Shown here one piece after another: positions 43,521 to 53,323 of a stretch of 64,000 nucleotides of DNA. Under the pieces are notes generated by a model that searched no databases, was not told where the DNA came from, and was given only the letters and a program-made list of their open reading frames with translations. The stretch's first letter is position 1; the number at the start of each line of letters is the position of its first letter. The position numbers and the translations under genes were made by a program. Source of the stretch: Escherichia coli (GTDB taxonomy: Bacteria > Pseudomonadota > Gammaproteobacteria > Enterobacterales > Enterobacteriaceae); NCBI RefSeq assembly GCF_048403405.1, contig NZ_CP183129.1; one strand, written 5' to 3'.

Positions 43521-44057
43521 ATGTTACGCGATAAATTTATTCACTATTTTCAGCAATGGCGTGAACGCCAGTTAAGCCGTGGCGAACACTGGCTGACACA
43601 ACACCTGGCGGGGCGTTCTCCGCGTGAAAAAGGCATGTTACTGGCAGCGGTAGTGTTCCTGTTTAGCGCCGGATATTACGTCCTCATCTGGCAGCCGTTG
43701 AGCGAACGGATAGAACAACAGGAGACGATGTTGCAGCAGCTGGTGGCGATGAACGCGCGACTGAAGAGCGCCGCGCCGAATATTATTGCGGCGCGAAAAT
43801 CCGGCACGACAACGCCAGCACAGGTATCGCGGGTCATCAGCGACAGCGCTTCCGCGCACTCTGTGGTCATCAAACGGATTGCCGAGCGTGGGGAGAATAT
43901 TCAGGTCTGGATAGAACCTGTGGTGTTTAATGACCTGCTGAACTGGTTAAAGGCGCTGGATGAAAAGTACGCGCTGCGGGTGGCACAAATTGATGTCAGT
44001 GCGGGTGAGAAGCCTGGGATGGTGAATGTGCAGCGACTGGAGTTTGGGCGGGGGTAG
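43521..44057 (+). CDS. gspM: type II secretion protein GspM (YghD)
   Basis: 178-aa ORF MLRDKFIHYFQQWRERQLSRGEHWLTQHLAGRSPREKGMLLAAVVFLF... with single TM helix. Confidence 0.85.
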   Translation: MLRDKFIHYFQQWRERQLSRGEHWLTQHLAGRSPREKGMLLAAVVFLFSAGYYVLIWQPLSERIEQQETMLQQLVAMNARLKSAAPNIIAARKSGTTTPAQVSRVISDSASAHSVVIKRIAERGENIQVWIEPVVFNDLLNWLKALDEKYALRVAQIDVSAGEKPGMVNVQRLEFGRG

Positions 44058-44692
44058 GTATTGCCATTTCCTTAACCCCACCTGATAACCCTTAGCCCAA
44101 TGGTGAGTGCGGAACTGTCAAACCCGCTCACCGGGCTGAGTTTCGATGTAGCAAGAATTATCTCCCTCCAGACCACCACGGAATATTCGGTAACACTGAA
44201 GGAACCTGTTTTTCACCATGTAGCCTTCGTTAATCGACACCTTTCTCAGACTGTAAAGTTGCTTAAGTGTTTTGACACATTATGATTATTAATAGTTGTA
44301 ATAAATCATTGAGTAACAATTGATAGGCAAAAACATATAGGATAATTCTAGTGTGATCTGTATTTTGTGTAACCTGGAAGTTAGTAAAATTCCTGGAGAT
44401 AATCAGAAAGGGAATTTCAAATAAGCATAATAATTTCCAGTGAAACTATTCGTCGATTTTAAGAAATGTCTGCTCAGGTATATCTACTGAGGGATGGTGT
44501 TGGTTGTAACACTGGTTAAAATAAACACACAAAAATAATCAAGATGTATATTTTAATCGACAAAAATAATTACTCGCGGAATTATTGATGGGTGTTAAAT
44601 AACACCGTTTAAATGTGATGTAAATCACAAATGTGACTGTAAAGAGGGTGCTGTAGATATAAATAAGAAGTACATGAGTGAATTTTAAATAG

Positions 44693-45096
44693 GGAAATAG
44701 TTTCTTGCTAAACAATTTATTGGTAATCAATCGCATGCGTTCTGGTTTGAGATAGATTACAGGTGTTACTACGCATAAAATTCATGGGTGGTATTATAAT
44801 CAAGTAGTTAACAGTAATAGTGAAAAATAATTTCTTGCGAAATTAGCGGCCCGTTTTGAATAAGTGTGTTCCGGAGTAATCCAGAACGCATGCTGCTTTA
44901 CATCTTTTTCAAGCCATATTGGTTAAGCAAAAAGAAGTAGAAATAATTTCCTGAGAAATTAACTCAACATTCTGAAACGGCCAGTTTTCTGAAATTACCA
45001 GAAGACCGAATACATTCATGCCTGAAGAATGGATTAGAAGAAACGAGACGGAAATAGATCTATTTATCCCTGCGGAAATAATTTCTGCTGAAATTG
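44693..45096. repeat. four dispersed copies of a ~22-bp motif (GAAATAATTTCyTGmgAAATT) in the kpsM upstream region
   Basis: Copies at 44693-44718, 44822-44849, 44940-44960 and 45074-45096, spaced 117-135 bp apart, all in the same orientation. Confidence 0.6.
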
Positions 45097-45190
45097 TTTG
45101 CGGCTATTAAAAAGGTCAAACCGTCTGACTAAATTTTATCCAGTTACAAACAAGTATTACCTCCAGTGTATTGGTAGCTGTTAAGCCAGG

Positions 45191-45198
45191 GGCGGTAG
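45191..45198 (+). promoter_or_regulatory. ops element (RfaH recruitment site) in the kpsM leader
   Basis: GGCGGTAG core, 33 nt upstream of the kpsM start codon, within ccaggggcggtagcatacc. Confidence 0.75.
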
Positions 45199-45230
45199 CA
45201 TACCTGAAGAGAATAGGATCACATCACCAA

Positions 45231-46007
45231 ATGGCAAGAAGTGGATTTGAAGTCCAGAAAGTCACCGTAGAGGCATTATTTCTACGAGAAATACGAACAC
45301 GCTTTGGTAAGTTCCGTCTGGGATATCTGTGGGCGATTCTCGAACCCTCTGCGCATTTGCTGATACTGTTGGGCATTTTTGGTTACATTATGCACCGCAC
45401 GATGCCAGACATCTCGTTCCCGGTGTTTTTACTTAATGGCCTGATTCCCTTTTTTATCTTTAGCAGTATCAGCAAACGTTCTGTAAGTGCTATTGAAGCG
45501 AACCAGGGGCTGTTTAATTATCGCCCAGTAAAACCCATCGATACGATCATTGCGCGCGCCCTGCTTGAGACGCTGATTTACGTTTCTGTTTATATTCTGC
45601 TTATGCTCATTGTCAGGATGGCAGGCGAATATTTCGAGATAACAAATTTTTTACAACTTGTGGCTACCTGGAGTCTGCTGATCATTCTTTCATGCAGCGT
45701 CGGCTTAATATTCATGGTCGTTGGTAAAACCTTCCCCGAAATGCAAAAGGTTCTGCCGATACTTCTTAAGCCCCTTTATTTCATCTCCTGCATCATGTTC
45801 CCTCTGCACTCAATTCCAAAGCAATACTGGTCATATCTACTCTGGAACCCACTAGTGCATGTCGTGGAGTTAAGCCGTGAGGCCGTTATGCCTGGCTATA
45901 TTAGCGAAGGTGTGAGTCTGAACTACCTGGCAATGTTCACATTGATAACTCTGTTCATTGGTCTGGCGTTATATCGAACTCGTGAGGAGGCAATGCTGAC
46001 ATCATGA
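45231..46007 (+). CDS. kpsM: group 2 capsule ABC exporter permease
   Basis: ORF track 45171..46007; MARSGFEVQKVTVEALFLREIRTRFGKFRLGYLWAILEP... begins at ATG 45231. Confidence 0.93.
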   Translation: MARSGFEVQKVTVEALFLREIRTRFGKFRLGYLWAILEPSAHLLILLGIFGYIMHRTMPDISFPVFLLNGLIPFFIFSSISKRSVSAIEANQGLFNYRPVKPIDTIIARALLETLIYVSVYILLMLIVRMAGEYFEITNFLQLVATWSLLIILSCSVGLIFMVVGKTFPEMQKVLPILLKPLYFISCIMFPLHSIPKQYWSYLLWNPLVHVVELSREAVMPGYISEGVSLNYLAMFTLITLFIGLALYRTREEAMLTS

Positions 46008-46675
46008 TTAAGATTGAGAATTTGACGAAGTCATATCGCACGCCAACGGGTCGACATTATGTGTTTAAGGATTTAAACCTCGAAATCCCTTCAGGAAAAA
46101 GTGTTGCCTTTATTGGTCGTAATGGTGCGGGTAAATCAACGTTACTGAGAATGATTGGTGGCATTGACCGCCCCGACAGTGGAAAGATCATCACTAATAA
46201 AACAGTATCATGGCCAGTCGGCCTTGCAGGTGGATTTCAGGGAAGTTTAACCGGACGCGAAAACGTAAAATTTGTTGCGCGGTTATACGCGAAGCAAGAA
46301 GAACTGAAAGAGAAAATTGAGTTTGTTGAAGAATTTGCCGAACTTGGCAAGTACTTCGATATGCCGATTAAAACTTACTCATCAGGTATGCGATCGCGTT
46401 TAGGCTTTGGTTTAAGCATGGCATTTAAGTTTGATTATTATATCGTCGATGAAGTAACGGCGGTCGGTGATGCCAGGTTTAAAGAAAAATGCGCTCAATT
46501 GTTTAAAGAAAGGCATAAAGAATCTAGCTTTTTAATGGTTTCACATAGTTTGAATTCATTGAAAGAGTTTTGTGATGTGGCGCTATTCATACCTAGAGAT
46601 CATCAGACTTGTCTTTATCAGAATATTAATGACGCAATTAAGTTATATCAAAATGATGAAAATTTGAACATTTAG
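46004..46675 (+). CDS. kpsT: group 2 capsule ABC exporter ATPase
   Basis: 223-aa ORF with Walker A GRNGAGKST and ABC signature YSSGMRSRL; overlaps kpsM stop. Confidence 0.93.
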   Translation: MIKIENLTKSYRTPTGRHYVFKDLNLEIPSGKSVAFIGRNGAGKSTLLRMIGGIDRPDSGKIITNKTVSWPVGLAGGFQGSLTGRENVKFVARLYAKQEELKEKIEFVEEFAELGKYFDMPIKTYSSGMRSRLGFGLSMAFKFDYYIVDEVTAVGDARFKEKCAQLFKERHKESSFLMVSHSLNSLKEFCDVALFIPRDHQTCLYQNINDAIKLYQNDENLNI

Positions 46676-46686
46676 TGGAGCTAAAA

Positions 46687-47082
46687 ATGCGTAAAGTTAT
46701 CACCTTTGGTACATTTGATGTATTACATATAGGTCATATAAATATCTTAAAAAGGGCAAAAAAAATGGGGGACTATCTAATAGTTGGCGTCTCATCCGAT
46801 TATTTGAATTTCTCAAAAAAACAGAGGTATCCTGTTTATCCGGAAACTGAGCGTCTTGAAATAATTAGGTCCTTAAAATTTGTAGATGAAGTTTTTATTG
46901 AAGAGTCATTGGAATTAAAGGGCGAGTATATTAAAAAATTTAAGGCAGATATCTTAGTGATGGGAGATGATTGGCTAGGGCGATTTGATGAATATAAGGA
47001 ATTATGTGAAGTATCATATCTGCCAAGAACTGTTGGTATTTCAACGACAGAACTAATTTCTCAAATCAAAAGATATGGTTAA
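46687..47082 (+). CDS. glycerol-3-phosphate cytidylyltransferase (TagD-like)
   Basis: ORF track 46675..47082; MRKVITFGTFDVLHIGHINILKRAKKMGDYLIVGVSSD... HxGH nucleotidyltransferase motif, strong similarity to Bacillus TagD. Confidence 0.88.
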   Translation: MRKVITFGTFDVLHIGHINILKRAKKMGDYLIVGVSSDYLNFSKKQRYPVYPETERLEIIRSLKFVDEVFIEESLELKGEYIKKFKADILVMGDDWLGRFDEYKELCEVSYLPRTVGISTTELISQIKRYG

Positions 47083-47097
47083 TTTTGGAGAGGGATT

Positions 47098-48333
47098 TTG
47101 AAATTTCATTCAGAGATAAAAAACTCTATAAAAAATGCGAAGAAATTCAAAGGTATTTTATTTGTTAATATAATATCTTATCTGCTGCTAACAATTGCGA
47201 TAAGAAAAGGTCATTCGAAAGAGATTTTAAAATTTAAGTGGTTGATTTTACTTTTTGGCGGGAGTGTCGCTAAATATTTTGTTGCTAGGGCTTCATTTCT
47301 TAATGGTGATTATATATTTGCTAAGAAATTATATCAAGAGATAATTAAGGTAAACCCAATACATACTGATAGCTATTATGGGTTGGCTGATGTTTATAGA
47401 CTAACCGGAAATAAATTAGAAGCGAAGGATGTACTCATTCAAGTTTTTAATTTTTCTGATCGTTTGAAAACTTGGCTATTATTGGCGAACTTGGTTGATA
47501 CAAAAAAAGATTATGATGAATTATTGAATCATTGGGAAAGGGAATGTTCTTATAGGAATATACTTAAGTATCATTATGATGTGAACGATTACCTTATAAT
47601 TGCTGCGTTAAGGGCTAAACTATATGAAGAAGCATTAAATCGGGTTAAAGTATTGTTGGGAAGTATAAATTCTGAGGCTTTTATCTTACCAAAAACTAGC
47701 AATAAAAACTTTTCTGTTAATGCTGCTAAAATTGCATTATTAGGTCTAAAAAAAATATTGGATGCTAATAAAATACAGTTTTTTTTAGTTAGCGGAACAT
47801 TACTTGGTTGTATTCGTGATAAAAAATTACTAAAACATGACAAAGATATTGATATAGGAGTATGGAGCGAAACAAATCTATCCGTATTATCAACGAAAAT
47901 TGCTTGCTCTGGCTTGTTTGATATTGCACCTATGCGCTCACCGTATACGTTGAGAATAAAACATGTTAATGGTGTGGCAATCGACATATTTTTTCATTAT
48001 CGAGATCATGACAGCTATTGGCATGCGGGTTCAAAGCTGAGATGGAACAATACTCCATTTAATTTGATTTCTTATGGTTTTCTTGGGAACGTGTTTTTAA
48101 TACCAGAAAATTATGATTTATATTTGACTGAGAATTATGGAAACTGGATGCAAGAAAAAATGAAATTTGACTCTGCATTCGATACACCCAATCATGAAAT
48201 AGTTAATATGTATGAATTAAAAATACACGCGTATAAAAAGCTAATAATAAACATGAAAATTGGTAGTGTTGAAGGCGTTAGATATTATGAAGATAAATTA
48301 AATGAACTTGGGTGTATTATATCTAAGCCTTGA
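47098..48333 (+). CDS. two-domain protein: N-terminal TPR-like region plus C-terminal LicD-family phosphotransferase domain
   Basis: 411-aa ORF (TTG start after ggagaggg RBS); LicD-type motif SGTLLGCIRDKKLLKHDKDIDIG. Confidence 0.65.
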   Translation: MKFHSEIKNSIKNAKKFKGILFVNIISYLLLTIAIRKGHSKEILKFKWLILLFGGSVAKYFVARASFLNGDYIFAKKLYQEIIKVNPIHTDSYYGLADVYRLTGNKLEAKDVLIQVFNFSDRLKTWLLLANLVDTKKDYDELLNHWERECSYRNILKYHYDVNDYLIIAALRAKLYEEALNRVKVLLGSINSEAFILPKTSNKNFSVNAAKIALLGLKKILDANKIQFFLVSGTLLGCIRDKKLLKHDKDIDIGVWSETNLSVLSTKIACSGLFDIAPMRSPYTLRIKHVNGVAIDIFFHYRDHDSYWHAGSKLRWNNTPFNLISYGFLGNVFLIPENYDLYLTENYGNWMQEKMKFDSAFDTPNHEIVNMYELKIHAYKKLIINMKIGSVEGVRYYEDKLNELGCIISKP

Positions 48334-48386
48334 GGTCTATATAACTGAATATATTAAATATTAAAAAATAATCATGGGGACATAGT

Positions 48387-51300
48387 ATGTTGTTAACTAA
48401 GTTAGCTAAAAAAATATGCCAATCCAAAGAATATATTAACGGAATTTCTCTATACAAAAAAAAAGAATGGGAGAAGGCATTATTGTTCTTTGAGAAATCA
48501 ATCATAAAAAAAACAAAACATGCGGAGAGCTATTTTAAAGCAGGAATATGCAATCTTAAATTGCATAGATATGAAGAGGCATTTAAATATATAAGTAAAG
48601 CATTAGAATTGGAACCCTCAAATATACAGTGGAAAGAACAACTCGAACAGTGTGCAAGGCATCTTGATAAGTTAAATAATCATATGGTGAGCAAATCATC
48701 TACTGAAGAAGATTTATTAAGGGAAAAACTTAATACAGACTTTAATAATCCAAAATTACACGATAGACTTGCTGAGGTTCTTCATAAAAAAGGGCGTTGG
48801 TGGCAGGAAGTTGATACGCTGAAAAACGCAATAAAATTAGATCCTTCAATACCTGAACGTTATTTCAAACTTGGCACCGCATTAGAAAAGATGGGGCGTT
48901 TTAATGAGGCTAGTATATATTATAAAAAAGGACTTGAATTTAATAAAAAACATGATGCTATTTGGTATTATGCACTCGGATATTCGCTTGAATCTGATGA
49001 AACAAACAATGTAGAAAATGTCCGTAGTTCTAAAATAGCATATGCGACAGCTATATCGTTAGACAAAAAATTAAATAGTAATAAATTTGGAATAGGAGCA
49101 TTTCATCAATATAAGGGACGCTGGGCTAAGGCTATTGATGCGTATGAAAAACATACATCCATAAATCCATTATGTGCAGAGCTATATTATAGGCTCGGAT
49201 TATCTTATGATAGATGTTATCAATGGGATAAAGCCGCAGAGAATTATCGCAAGGCATTATCACTCGATGAAAATCATCCTTATTGGCATTATAGGCTAGG
49301 GTTTGTTTTAGAGAGAAGTCAAAAGTATCTTGATGCTGCTGTTGCTTATCAATTTGCAGCACAAAGCAATATCAAACATATCTCGATTTGGTACTATAGA
49401 TCTGGGTACGCATATGCTAAGGCTAATAAATACAGGCAATCCTGTGAAATGTATATAAAAGCATATGACTCTTCTCAGGAAATTTATGCATCACAAATAA
49501 AAGTTATTGATAACAATGATACCCATTTAAACTCTTACAGAAAAAAACTTAAATATGAAAGCAGGATTAATACTTTAGAGTCAGCAATTTCTAATTCATG
49601 CATAAATTATGGATTATGGTATGAATTAGGTAAAACATATGAATCTTCATGTAATTGGAATGATGCTGTCATTGCATATCATGAAGGTATTATGAGAAAC
49701 AATACATATACCAAAGACTATTATTATAGAATCGGATATTCATTATTCCGCGATGGGAATTATCAACAGGCATGTAATTTTTTTCGTAAAATAGAGATTT
49801 TTGGAACACCGTATGGGGCTCCTGATGATATTCTAACAAAAAATTTAACTTTTAGGAGGAATGCTACATACACTGAATTTTATGAAACATTATCAATTGA
49901 AAAAAACACTATACTTTATGAAAGCTTTCATGGTGCAAGTATTTCTTGTAACCCATATGCATTATTTTTAGATATTATTGATGATCAACGATTTGATAAT
50001 TTCAGACATATTTGGGTTATCAATAATGAAAAAAAAATCCCTGAGCAGCTAAAAAATAAAAAAAATGTATATTTTGTTTCAAGGCAAAGTGATTTATACA
50101 TGCAATGTTTGGCATCATGTGAATTTTTGATAAATAATGTTAGTTTTCCTGAGTATTTTATAAGAAAGAAAGGGCAGCGATATTTAAATACTTGGCATGG
50201 AACTCCTATAAAATTTCTTGGAAAAGATATTAAAGATGAATTTTTAGCACATAAAAATGTGGCTAGAAATTTCCTTCACACAACACATTTACTTAGTCCT
50301 AATACACACACAACTAATATTTTATTAGATAGGTATGATATATCTAATATATTTAGTGGGGAAATTAAAGAGTTAGGTTATCCTCGCATTGACCGGACTA
50401 TTAATCTTAGCTCTGAACGGAAGGAATATATACGTAGGAAAATTAATGCGAACGTTTACGATAAAGTAGTCTTGTATGCTCCAACTTGGAGAGGAATACA
50501 TGGAAAGGCAACTTTAGATATAGAAAAACTAAAGAACGATCTTGAAAAGTTGGCTGACCAGGATTGTCATATCGTTTTCCGTGGTCATCATATGATCGAA
50601 AAATTAGTAAGTGAGCAGAATATTTCTGGTATAACAATTGTTCCTTCTGAGATTGACACGAATGAGTTACTAGGGGCGATTGATATTCTTATCACAGATT
50701 ATTCAAGTATTGCTTTCGATTTTTTTGTAATGAATAGACCAGTAATTTACTATGCGTATGATATTGAGCAATATAATAATGAGAGAGGGTTGTATTTTCC
50801 TCTAAATGAATTACCTGGAACCGTTTGTTTTAATGATGTAGAGTTACTTAACACGTTAAGTGGATATCTTCGTAATGAAATATATTTCGATGCATCTAAA
50901 GGTATTGATAAGTTTTGTAAAAATGATGATGGAAGTGTATGTGGAAAAGTAATTGAATGGTTCTTCTTTGAAGAAAAATCCATATTGCTTAATAAAAACA
51001 AAAATAAAAATATACTTTTTTATATTGGTCCATTTATTCCAAATGGTATATTGTCATCATGGCTAAATCTTATATCGGTAATTGATCGTGATAAATATAA
51101 TATTTCTTTGGTTGTTGACCCAAAATTAATTCATGGTTTTCAAGAACGGTTCGAGCAGTTTAAGAGAGTCTCTCCAGATATTCAAGTCATTGGAACTTGT
51201 GGAAACATGCTTTATAATATTGAAGAGAAATGGCTTAATGATAAATTAAATAATCAATTCACCCTGGCAAGTAAGGAAATGTATGATATTCTTGATCATG

Positions 51301-52187
51301 CTTACCAACGAGAGTTTTTAAGGCTCTTTGGCTATAGTCATATTGATCATCTAATCCATTTTGAAGGTTATAATCAATCTTGGGTTATCCGGTTTGCTAA
51401 TGCTCCGAAAGATACAGTTAGAAATAAAATAATATTTCAACATAATGATAAGTTGAGCGAGTGGAGAGAAAGATTTCCATATCTTAGAGTTGTTTTTGAT
51501 TTTTATAAATCTTACAATAAAATTGTTTCTGTTTCTGAAAAAACGATGGAGTTGAACAGAGATAACTTAAGCGAATTTTTTAATATTGAGCATGATAAGT
51601 TTATTTATTGTGATAATGTTCAGAATCCAGATGAGGTGATTAAAAAATCTGATGATATTGATACAAGTGGATTTATTTTTGAAAATGATAAAATCTACTT
51701 TATAACTTTGGGCAGACTTTCAGTCGAAAAAGATCAACAAAAGTTGATTAATGCCTTTTGCAGATTACAAAAATTATATCCTAATATTGAGTTATTAATT
51801 CTTGGAGACGGCCCCCTCAAGATTGATTTACAACGCCAGATTATAACTTTAGGACTTGAAAAATCCGTACATCTTCTGGGACGCATATCAAATCCTTTTC
51901 CACTGCTAAAGAGAGCTGACTGTTTTGTCCTCTCTTCAAATCATGAAGGGCAACCTATGGTTCTTTTCGAAGCAATGATTCTAGATAAACCTATAATATC
52001 AACTGACATTACTGGTTCTAGAAGTGCTCTTGAAGGGCGTTCTGGTGTATTAGTTGAAAATAGTGTAGACGGTCTCTTCAACGGAATGCGGGACTTTATC
52101 TTGGGAAGGTTGGAGTTTAAACATTTTGACATTGAATCTTATCAAAAAAATGCTTTGTCGATGTTTTATGAAAAATGCCTTCATTAA
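48387..52187 (+). CDS. multidomain capsule polymerase: TPR repeats, TagF-like CDP-glycerol glycerophosphotransferase, GT4 glycosyltransferase
   Basis: 1266-aa ORF; TPR repeats in the first ~450 aa; TagF-family motif NTWHGTPIKFLG; GT-B/GT4 motif NHEGQPMVLFEAM near the C-terminus. Confidence 0.8.
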   Translation: MLLTKLAKKICQSKEYINGISLYKKKEWEKALLFFEKSIIKKTKHAESYFKAGICNLKLHRYEEAFKYISKALELEPSNIQWKEQLEQCARHLDKLNNHMVSKSSTEEDLLREKLNTDFNNPKLHDRLAEVLHKKGRWWQEVDTLKNAIKLDPSIPERYFKLGTALEKMGRFNEASIYYKKGLEFNKKHDAIWYYALGYSLESDETNNVENVRSSKIAYATAISLDKKLNSNKFGIGAFHQYKGRWAKAIDAYEKHTSINPLCAELYYRLGLSYDRCYQWDKAAENYRKALSLDENHPYWHYRLGFVLERSQKYLDAAVAYQFAAQSNIKHISIWYYRSGYAYAKANKYRQSCEMYIKAYDSSQEIYASQIKVIDNNDTHLNSYRKKLKYESRINTLESAISNSCINYGLWYELGKTYESSCNWNDAVIAYHEGIMRNNTYTKDYYYRIGYSLFRDGNYQQACNFFRKIEIFGTPYGAPDDILTKNLTFRRNATYTEFYETLSIEKNTILYESFHGASISCNPYALFLDIIDDQRFDNFRHIWVINNEKKIPEQLKNKKNVYFVSRQSDLYMQCLASCEFLINNVSFPEYFIRKKGQRYLNTWHGTPIKFLGKDIKDEFLAHKNVARNFLHTTHLLSPNTHTTNILLDRYDISNIFSGEIKELGYPRIDRTINLSSERKEYIRRKINANVYDKVVLYAPTWRGIHGKATLDIEKLKNDLEKLADQDCHIVFRGHHMIEKLVSEQNISGITIVPSEIDTNELLGAIDILITDYSSIAFDFFVMNRPVIYYAYDIEQYNNERGLYFPLNELPGTVCFNDVELLNTLSGYLRNEIYFDASKGIDKFCKNDDGSVCGKVIEWFFFEEKSILLNKNKNKNILFYIGPFIPNGILSSWLNLISVIDRDKYNISLVVDPKLIHGFQERFEQFKRVSPDIQVIGTCGNMLYNIEEKWLNDKLNNQFTLASKEMYDILDHAYQREFLRLFGYSHIDHLIHFEGYNQSWVIRFANAPKDTVRNKIIFQHNDKLSEWRERFPYLRVVFDFYKSYNKIVSVSEKTMELNRDNLSEFFNIEHDKFIYCDNVQNPDEVIKKSDDIDTSGFIFENDKIYFITLGRLSVEKDQQKLINAFCRLQKLYPNIELLILGDGPLKIDLQRQIITLGLEKSVHLLGRISNPFPLLKRADCFVLSSNHEGQPMVLFEAMILDKPIISTDITGSRSALEGRSGVLVENSVDGLFNGMRDFILGRLEFKHFDIESYQKNALSMFYEKCLH

Positions 52188-52289
52188 AGCATTAATCTAT
52201 ATCATGATCGTCAAGAACCATTGATTGATTTGTAAGGAGGTATACCTCCTTACAAATTAAAGTAAATTTAGTTAAGTTAATAAATAATT

Positions 52290-53318
52290 ATGAATAAGAC
52301 AGTTTTACATATTAACAGTAATATAACCACAGATGAAATTAGTTTATTGTTGCAGGCATCCAAGTATAAATATATTCATTTTGAAATAATTGGGAAAGGT
52401 GATTCATGTAAAAATTTAATTGAGTTTTCATATCATGATTATAATAAAAAAAAACAATTAATTGCTTTAACTAATGCTGGTTTTATGTCGTACGTTCATC
52501 GTGGAAATGTAACTTCATTGGTTCACTTTGATGAGATAAAAAACCTCTGGATTCCAGTAAAAGAAAAAAAGTTTTCTATTAATTCTGATGGGATTGTATA
52601 TACGTTACAACGGGCTGCATGCAAAATAAATGAAAAGCTACTGATTGTTTTCTCTCAGATGCCAATTGAACCATATTCTGCAAGCTTGTACAGATATTTT
52701 GCAAAAAACTTTTCTACAATTGATAAATATATTGGAAAAAATGTTTCTATATTAAGAGTGGCTGATATCGGAGGAATTACTGGCTCATTTTACTTAAATA
52801 CAAATGCATTACCAACCAATGCTGATAAAATTAAAAGCCTTATATTAGAAGTTATTGAACAATGTCAAATAAAATCAGATGATGTCGTACTTTATGGATG
52901 CTCAAAAGGAGGTACGGCAGCCGTTTATCATGGATTAACTAATAATTATAAAATAGTAGCGGTGGATCCTATATTAAATGATGAACATTATATAAATAAT
53001 AAAAATGATCTACATTTAATAGAGGGAGTTTTTCCTCAGCCAAAGGAAGAGTTATTCAAAAAAGTCATTGATGACTATTTAATAAACTATAAGGGGAATA
53101 TGTCTTATTTTATTGTTTCACAAAATTCGGAACAGTACAAATATATTATGGATATTATAAATCCAATCATCACTTATTCAACAGTTGCAAATAGCATCAA
53201 TGATAAAATTAAAAGCCATCCTGATGTTGGGCCACAATCAATTCATATGATTGTAGCAATGATTAATATGGCTCTTTCTGGAATAAAACTATCTAACGGC
53301 ATCTATGATTTTGTTTAA
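52290..53318 (+). CDS. hypothetical protein with serine-hydrolase-like GxSxG motif (possible polymer-modifying enzyme)
   Basis: 342-aa ORF in AT-rich region 2; motif VVLYGCSKGGTAAVYHG resembles an alpha/beta-hydrolase nucleophile elbow. Confidence 0.55.
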   Translation: MNKTVLHINSNITTDEISLLLQASKYKYIHFEIIGKGDSCKNLIEFSYHDYNKKKQLIALTNAGFMSYVHRGNVTSLVHFDEIKNLWIPVKEKKFSINSDGIVYTLQRAACKINEKLLIVFSQMPIEPYSASLYRYFAKNFSTIDKYIGKNVSILRVADIGGITGSFYLNTNALPTNADKIKSLILEVIEQCQIKSDDVVLYGCSKGGTAAVYHGLTNNYKIVAVDPILNDEHYINNKNDLHLIEGVFPQPKEELFKKVIDDYLINYKGNMSYFIVSQNSEQYKYIMDIINPIITYSTVANSINDKIKSHPDVGPQSIHMIVAMINMALSGIKLSNGIYDFV

Positions 53319-53323
53319 ATAAT

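Follow-up and report, generated by a model that had tools for sequence, protein, structure and literature searches.

A JUMPstart-embedded ops element at the end of the long kpsM leader of an Escherichia coli group 2 capsule locus

The question raised by this locus is whether the 8-mer GGCGGTAG that precedes kpsM, the first gene of a long capsule operon, is a working ops element at which RfaH is loaded onto RNA polymerase, and whether transcription of the AT-rich genes further downstream depends on it. The locus lies in an Escherichia coli chromosome (contig NZ_CP183129.1), of which a stretch of 64,000 nucleotides was analysed, here called the window. A preliminary description, made from the sequence alone, had proposed that the 8-mer is an ops element and that transcription through the low-GC part of the capsule cluster, known as region 2, depends on RfaH. 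We conclude that GGCGGTAG is the functional ops of the region 3/region 2 operon of a group 2 capsule locus, that it is part of a JUMPstart element, and that RfaH loads here, a reading to which we assign a probability of about 0.96. The evidence supports the proposal, and it also supports the view that the finding was already on record, the position and function of the site since 1997 and its genome-wide context since 2022. The site is thus a functional ops that is already known and explained, and there is nothing novel in the finding itself.

The surrounding genes have the arrangement of a group 2 kps cluster: kpsMT on the plus strand and kpsS, kpsC, kpsU, kpsD, kpsE and kpsF on the minus strand converge on a low-GC region 2, beside the gsp remnant yghD. 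The features in the direction of transcription of kpsM are as follows.

45215-45218 (+): weak Shine-Dalgarno-like AGGA, 12 nt before the kpsM ATG; duplex with the 16S 3' end, -4.0 kcal/mol
45231-46007 (+): kpsM, ABC transporter permease, 258 aa (NCBIfam NF050053, E = 5e-55, below the equivalog cut-off)
46004-46675 (+): kpsT, ABC transporter ATPase, 223 aa (ABC ATPase family matches; adjoins kpsM in all related loci)
46687-54319 (+): region 2, K2-type, five genes co-oriented with kpsMT, beginning 12 nt after kpsT

The KpsM protein is 100% identical to CFT073 c3698 and 96-99% identical to the KpsM of K1 and other E. coli strains, and the ATG at 45231 agrees with the PGAP start in related genomes. 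A longer kpsM reading frame with a TTG start at 45171 was rejected as a mechanical artefact. The Shine-Dalgarno duplex of kpsT is -12.2 kcal/mol, as against -4.0 kcal/mol for kpsM. Region 2 encodes a glycerol-3-phosphate cytidylyltransferase-like protein, a TPR protein, a 1266-aa protein that matches TPR, CDP-glycerol glycerophosphotransferase and GT4 glycosyltransferase families, an XcbB/CpsF protein and a hypothetical protein. It is classified as K2-type because of the cytidylyltransferase-like gene and the gene for the 1266-aa protein. The AT-richness attributed to region 2 in the preliminary description is borne out by a GC content of 0.27-0.34 over 46500-54500, compared with 0.42-0.45 in kpsMT and about 0.5 in region 1. 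PGAP calls the opening gene of region 2 (46687-47082, +) 'pantoate--beta-alanine ligase' or 'FAD synthase family'. Among protein families it resembles glycerol-3-phosphate cytidylyltransferase most closely (TIGR01518, E = 3e-37, below the cut-off), in keeping with a K2 capsule that contains glycerol phosphate, and the PGAP name is probably a database misnaming. A sequence search found no rfaH gene within the 64-kb window.

The element itself comprises three nested or adjoining features.

45164-45202 (+): JUMPstart, 39 nt, CAGTGTATTGGTAGCTGTTAAGCCAGGGGCGGTAGCATA; full-length match to Rfam RF01707, with GGCGGTAG within its 3' end
45171-45175 (TTGGT) and 45185-45189 (GCCAG) (+): stem of the JUMPstart hairpin, with the 9-nt loop AGCTGTTAA, after the RF01707 consensus structure
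45191-45198 (+): ops core GGCGGTAG, exact match, invariant in all kps leaders aligned

The core matches without a single mismatch at 45191-45198 on the plus strand, that is, on the coding (non-template) strand of kpsM. Within the transcribed leader it is thus found on the non-template strand, 3' of the promoter and 5' of the first gene. The complete 12-nt ops, GGCGGTAGCATA, extends over 45191-45202 (+). How the distance to kpsM is given depends on the counting convention: 32 nt separate the core from the ATG at 45231, counting from the final base of the core to the A of the ATG gives 33 nt, and 28 nt separate the end of the 12-nt ops (45202) from the ATG. The preliminary description had placed the core 33 nt ahead of the start codon, a count that holds under the second convention, and a review quotes an ops-kpsM spacing of '28 bp' (PMC8960920); the two figures describe the same arrangement, counted in two ways.

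Neither the 8-mer nor the 12-mer is remarkable by its frequency. There are two copies of GGCGGTAG in the 64-kb window against 1.34 expected, and two or more occur in 37 of 100 shuffles; similarly, the window contains four 12-mers within one mismatch of GGCGGTAGNNTG, where 2.9 are expected. Since these counts are not above chance, the case for an ops element rests on context. The JUMPstart context in which the 8-mer is found is far beyond chance.

The second copy of GGCGGTAG is contained in the 12-mer GGCGGTAGCGAG at 55167-55178 (+), which is antisense inside kpsS (54481-55719, -). Position 11 of this 12-mer is A. With respect to read-through transcription out of region 2, the site is on the non-template strand, and it falls inside the published RfaH ChIP peak as mapped onto the window (see below). 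Hustmyer et al. place it within a gene, in the wrong orientation for that gene, and do not count it as a site of RfaH loading (PMC9765446). It is most likely a chance occurrence.

The match of 45164-45202 to RF01707 covers model positions 1-38 of 38 and scores 53.6 bits, compared with a gathering threshold of 35 (E = 7.2e-10). Its location just 5' of a surface-polysaccharide operon, here kpsMT and region 2, is that of a JUMPstart. The family structure contains a 5-bp hairpin 5' of ops, and the window has the same hairpin with a U-G closing pair, where most members have U-A or C-G. In an alignment of 96 distinct sequences, 97.7% of the cells of the stem are paired, a figure to be read with the restriction that the three inner pairs were fixed beforehand by the search pattern used to collect the JUMPstarts. 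The outer pair is C-G in 52, U-A in 22 and U-G in 15 of these sequences. The number of cells with changes on both sides of the stem is 26, against 10.3 +/- 2.3 in shuffles; none of 500 shuffles reaches the observed value, and there are no such cells in slid controls. With two G-C, one A-U and two G-U pairs and a 9-nt loop, the hairpin is thermodynamically weak. The RNA of 45140-45245 (106 nt) folds no better than its shuffles (z = +1.08), and the hairpin is absent from its minimum free energy fold. The support for the hairpin is thus that of covariation and Rfam. A second stem, CAGT/GCTG, which would form a pseudoknot, was rejected, because its columns are almost invariant and contain 16 C-A mismatches. 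Both the JUMPstart and its hairpin are already present in the literature and in Rfam.

Conservation of the element was assessed at two scales. Within E. coli, seven distinct kps lineages, 79% to 97% identical to the window overall, were aligned across the whole yghD-kpsM intergenic region. The last 80 nt, including the JUMPstart, are the conservation maximum of this 1.2-kb region, with a mean pairwise identity of 0.97-0.98, and the longest invariant run among the seven lineages, 33 nt at 45156-45188, is within these 80 nt. An invariant block of 30 nt (GAAGACCGAATACATTCATGCCTGAAGAAT) is also found at 45001-45030 in all aligned kps leaders; part of it, CATGCCTGAAGA, recurs as CATACCTGAAGA right after ops (45199-45212).

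Across species, a 20-base JUMPstart pattern was searched in one genome per species, which gave 111 stretches, mostly from Enterobacterales, of which 110 are distinct. Among these 110, conservation sets in sharply at CAGTG and breaks off at position 12 of ops, a length of exactly 39 nt between random flanks. Homologues of kpsM are found 28-34 nt 3' of ops in two other Escherichia species, a second E. coli (E69), two Pantoea and a further genus, with KpsM identities to the window of 82-84% in Pantoea and 73% in the further genus. In the kpsM leaders from outside Escherichia, the JUMPstart is intact and the surrounding sequence is unrelated. In addition, E. coli strain 410 has a JUMPstart that differs from that of the window at three positions between galF and the O-antigen cluster. 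The distribution of related JUMPstarts, as judged from these matches, is the classical one for the element. The motif, its strand, its membership in the JUMPstart and its conservation can all be read directly from the sequence.

The role of RfaH can be examined through published data, because the same sequence has been studied in strain CFT073. The window comes from another strain, and its ops and JUMPstart are identical to those of CFT073. The kps locus as a whole is 99.5-99.99% identical to that of CFT073, which has a K2 capsule, with an identical ops region, and the segment 44058-48400 is 100% identical to the O6:K2:H1 strains, ATCC 25922 and CFT073. Only five mismatches to CFT073 are found over 40300-56400, none of them in the JUMPstart, and one more up to 64 kb. 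The chromosomal backbone to the left of about 40.3 kb is 97.2-97.7% identical to CFT073. Identity jumps at an IS4 element (around 40300), with 97 mismatches in 36058-40300 against the five in 40300-56400, and we take this to mean that the capsule island is far more recently shared than the flanking chromosome. Beside this IS4/capsule boundary (40403-44057), gspK is truncated and gspL is frameshifted. In the same segment, 41756-41879 (+) is a full-length match to Rfam RF01405, the STnc490 Hfq-binding sRNA (120.5 bits, threshold 56), located directly 3' of a frameshifted IS4 transposase reading frame (40403-41752) and 5' of the truncated gspK.

A CFT073 coordinate x is converted to the window as 45231 + (3529292 - x), a mapping that is valid because the two sequences are collinear without gaps. 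It places the published RfaH ChIP peak as follows.

44724-56018 (+): extent of the RfaH ChIP peak, mapped from CFT073 3518505-3529799

An ops occupied by RfaH, with the sequence GGCGGTAGCATA, was identified in CFT073 at 3529321-3529332 by Hustmyer et al. (2022, mBio; PMC9765446); it is 817 nt away from the predicted start of transcription and precedes kpsM by 40 nt. The RfaH peak at kps (peak 24) is 70.9-fold, the strongest in the CFT073 genome, and disappears in an rfaH deletion; for comparison, the values are 30.6 at wzx, 19.0 at rfa and 5.7 at hly (PMC9765446). It covers c3698-c3692, that is, kpsM, kpsT and all of region 2, and extends antisense into c3691 (kpsS) (PMC9765446). In the same study, the polymerase travelling ratio from kpsM to the gene of the 1266-aa protein is 0.43-0.66 in the wild type and 0.04-0.07 in the rfaH deletion (PMC9765446). 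The resulting relative travelling ratio (RTR) of 0.10, an about 10-fold drop of occupancy 5 kb downstream, is the largest effect among the four operons measured, and additional deletion of hns and stpA brings the RTR back to 1.0 (PMC9765446).

These data support the proposal that transcription of region 2 is RfaH-dependent, since the RTR of 0.10 and the RfaH peak were obtained in CFT073 with an identical ops (PMC9765446). The experiment suggested in the preliminary description, in which region 2 expression and capsule are compared after loss of rfaH or mutation of the core, had also been published: strains in which ops is deleted or rfaH is lost have no K5 capsule and no longer express region 2 (Stevens et al. 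1997, via PMC3673904 and PMC8960920). The K5 and K1 kps ops occupy the same locus and the same position before kpsM, in the same JUMPstart and in the same order of long leader, ops, kpsMT and region 2. The K1 ops is identical to that of the window at positions 1-9 and 11-12 and differs at position 10; region 2 is K2-type here.

The preliminary description can be refined in two respects, the first being that ops lies at the end of a long leader, far from the promoter. The leader contains the following features.

44361-44366 (+): TATTTT, probable -10 hexamer of the region 3 promoter PR3, inside an 18-nt run invariant in all lineages
44385-45230 (+): untranslated kpsM leader, about 846 nt (the CFT073 UTR length is 846 nt), with ops at its 3' end
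44431-44448, 44567-44584, 44698-44715, 44828-44845, 44944-44961 and 45079-45096: leader palindromes, six copies

Literature transcription starts, when mapped to the window, fall at about 44374-44385, some 820-850 nt 5' of ops and kpsM. The K5 start, 741 bp before kpsM (PMC8960920), corresponds to 44374-44377 through the alignment with UTI89 and BL21, and the CFT073 RNA-seq start at 3530138 (PMC9765446) corresponds to 44385. The leader region differs from that of CFT073 at a single base (44329). By comparison, ops lies 27-67 nt from the transcription start in rfaQ and wzx, against 817 nt in CFT073 kps.

The six phased palindromes in the transcribed leader are imperfect copies of (AAA)TAATTTC-N4-GAAATTA, with AAATAATTTC often on the left side, at a spacing of 116-136 nt. 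Their arms are conserved between kps alleles while the central 4 nt vary freely, and the units of about 130 nt show little similarity beyond the palindromes. The K1-type (UTI89) and BL21 leaders are without exactly one unit (around 44828-44943), so that they have five copies where the window has six, which makes the leader of the window longer by about 116 nt. Neither the region 1 promoter nor the Pantoea and L109 kps leaders contain the motif. A manual tally of single transitions in the arms, taken from the allele alignment, gives four of the G-U type and three of the A-C type, which is no signal for RNA rather than DNA. We know of no regulator whose site matches these palindromes. They could be a regulator-binding array or hairpins of the leader RNA; the former is considered because YbdO binds within the last 300 bp before kpsM. 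No description of the palindromes was found in a literature search whose range did not include Stevens 1997 and Xue 2009.

The sequence of the 12-nt ops deserves attention, as it deviates from the consensus GGCGGTAGCGTG at A10 and A12 and keeps T11 (45201). Among 110 JUMPstart-linked ops sites, C9 and T11 are each present in 109; at position 10, G occurs 100 times and A nine times; and at position 12, the counts are 80 for G, 16 for A, 10 for T and four for C, so that 30 of the 110 are without G12. The auxiliary, pause-enhancing G12 is replaced by A12 here and in all aligned E. coli kps leaders. The other aligned E. coli kps alleles (UTI89, which is K1, SE15, BL21, NCCP12480, TUM13770 and DP051) have GGCGGTAGCGTA, ending in GCGTA, the O-antigen ops of strain 410 ends in GCGTG, and the lineage of the window has GCATA. 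On this comparison, A12 is typical of kps and A10 is a minority variant of the lineage of the window. The hlyC ops also has A10 (PMC9765446). In a census of the A10 variant with a 70-nt BLAST query, partial matches to other JUMPstarts were mixed into the identity bands. The consensus ops sites of rfaQ/waaQ, wzx/rfb and hlyC (GGCGGTAGCGTG or GGCGGTAGCATG) share with the window the core, C9, T11, a leader location on the non-template strand and a surrounding JUMPstart; they retain G12, and with it the TG pause, whereas kps sites have A12.

What these deviations mean for function can be judged from Zuber et al. (2018; PMC5995543). The pause is expected at T11, and G12 is in the TG pause dinucleotide of all validated K-12 RfaH targets (PMC5995543). 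In reporter assays, every ops substitution except G2C lowered the effect of RfaH, and G12C removed the U11 pause but kept RfaH recruitment (PMC5995543). We do not treat G12 as defining, because the G12C variant recruits RfaH, 30 of 110 natural ops sites are without G12, and the exact 12-mer of the window is bound by RfaH in vivo. The single-stranded DNA of 45189-45203, when folded, forms a mini-hairpin of the pairs G2:C9 and C3:G8. The same mini-hairpin is seen in the RfaH:ops crystal structure, in which G5 and T6 are presented to RfaH (PMC5995543), and bases 2-9 of the window ops are identical to the crystallised ops9. Sequence alone is insufficient, however, and leader context matters, since the same 12-mer inside sucA and clbB is not bound by RfaH (PMC9765446). 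The window ops is off the GCGTG consensus at both A10 and A12, but in CFT073 no RfaH ChIP peak is stronger than the one at the identical site. Note that ChIP height also reflects promoter strength, so that this is no proof that the A10/A12 variant is better.

The proposed course of events is as follows. Transcription would start at PR3, about 820-850 nt upstream. When the polymerase is at 45191-45202, the exposed non-template strand GGCGGTAGC would form a small hairpin displaying G5 and T6, and the polymerase would pause around T11, as it does at other ops sites. RfaH would then bind the exposed DNA, open, and remain on the polymerase instead of NusG. The polymerase modified in this way would resist pausing and the Rho-linked termination that is assisted by H-NS and StpA, and would continue through kpsM, kpsT and 7.6 kb of genes of about 30% GC, and antisense into kpsS. 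The refolded KOW domain of RfaH probably also aids ribosome loading on kpsM, by analogy, and the weak Shine-Dalgarno sequence of kpsM agrees with such recruitment. The T11 pause, the DNA hairpin and ribosome recruitment are thus inferred for kps from other ops sites. The second refinement is that the published mechanism is anti-pausing together with counter-silencing of the Rho-linked termination assisted by H-NS and StpA, and not read-through of a discrete terminator. Consensus scans for promoters and terminators over 44000-55000 gave counts equal to those of shuffles, with no excess of intrinsic terminators and no discrete one; the lack of such an excess fits the counter-silencing picture.

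Other readings of the element were weighed against RfaH loading. It might act mainly as RNA, with the JUMPstart hairpin or pairing with RyhB controlling kpsM translation or leader stability and RfaH being secondary. The 5' half of the JUMPstart is stricter than the RfaH contacts require, the hairpin shows compensatory changes, and Rfam files RF01707 as a cis-regulatory RNA; moreover, a role as an mRNA stem-loop was proposed by Marolda and Valvano in 1998 (secondary citation), and a GFP-fusion study found that RyhB activates the kpsM 5' UTR, with a predicted pairing that touches ops (PMC11988350). However, an action at the RNA level leaves both the RfaH ChIP peak and the ten-fold loss of polymerase in the absence of RfaH unexplained, the hairpin is weak and the 106-nt region does not fold better than shuffles, and the RyhB pairing is a prediction. 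We regard this reading as unlikely to be the main account; action as RNA is more plausible on top of RfaH loading than in place of it.

In another reading, a regulator of the capsule genes (for example the LysR-type YbdO, H-NS or SlyA) binds the block as DNA, and the block is not an elongation signal. YbdO does bind a fragment of the 300 bp 5' of kpsM, in vitro and in vivo (PMC9141747), and the region is AT-rich and coated with H-NS downstream. Against this, no motif is defined for YbdO, the mapped H-NS and SlyA footprints are near the promoter, roughly 600-950 nt 5' of ops (PMC8960920), and a 39-nt element that stands before unrelated operons in many genera is better explained by a general elongation signal, so that we consider a regulator site very improbable. 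It is harder still to maintain that the 8-mer is there by chance and that region 2 is driven by other signals, for example internal promoters. The near-chance count of GGCGGTAG in the window would agree with it, as would the 34 ops-like sites, out of 42 in CFT073, that are located in coding sequence and have no RfaH bound (PMC9765446), and promoter-like hexamers abound in region 2, although shuffles have as many. This reading is at odds with the invariance of the site across lineages and genera, the JUMPstart context, the Rfam match, and the published ChIP and genetics; with an RfaH peak that starts at ops and is absent in the rfaH deletion, it is in effect already refuted, and we give it practically no weight.

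Within RfaH loading at ops, the A12 of kps sites, together with the A10 of the window, suggests a more specific conjecture, which we hold to be rather doubtful: the kps ops may be naturally pause-weakened, efficient RfaH loading may rely on the JUMPstart RNA hairpin instead of the TG pause, and the palindromes may separately set the number of polymerases that arrive at the element. The 3' end of the hairpin lies 12 nt behind the T11 pause position. A 5-bp stem with a 9-nt loop 12 nt behind a pause resembles the geometry of the hairpin-stabilised his pause.

Confirmation of ops at this locus adds annotation value only. A modest residual value lies in an ops that is off consensus at two positions and coincides with the strongest CFT073 peak, and in the apparently undescribed palindromes, whose copy number varies between capsule types. 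Biologically the site is of importance, because the capsule ranks among the major virulence factors of extra-intestinal E. coli and RfaH is a target for anti-virulence approaches. If the conjecture on the hairpin were true, JUMPstart and ops would act together as one composite pause signal, with the hairpin accounting for the conservation of 39 nt and not just of 12.
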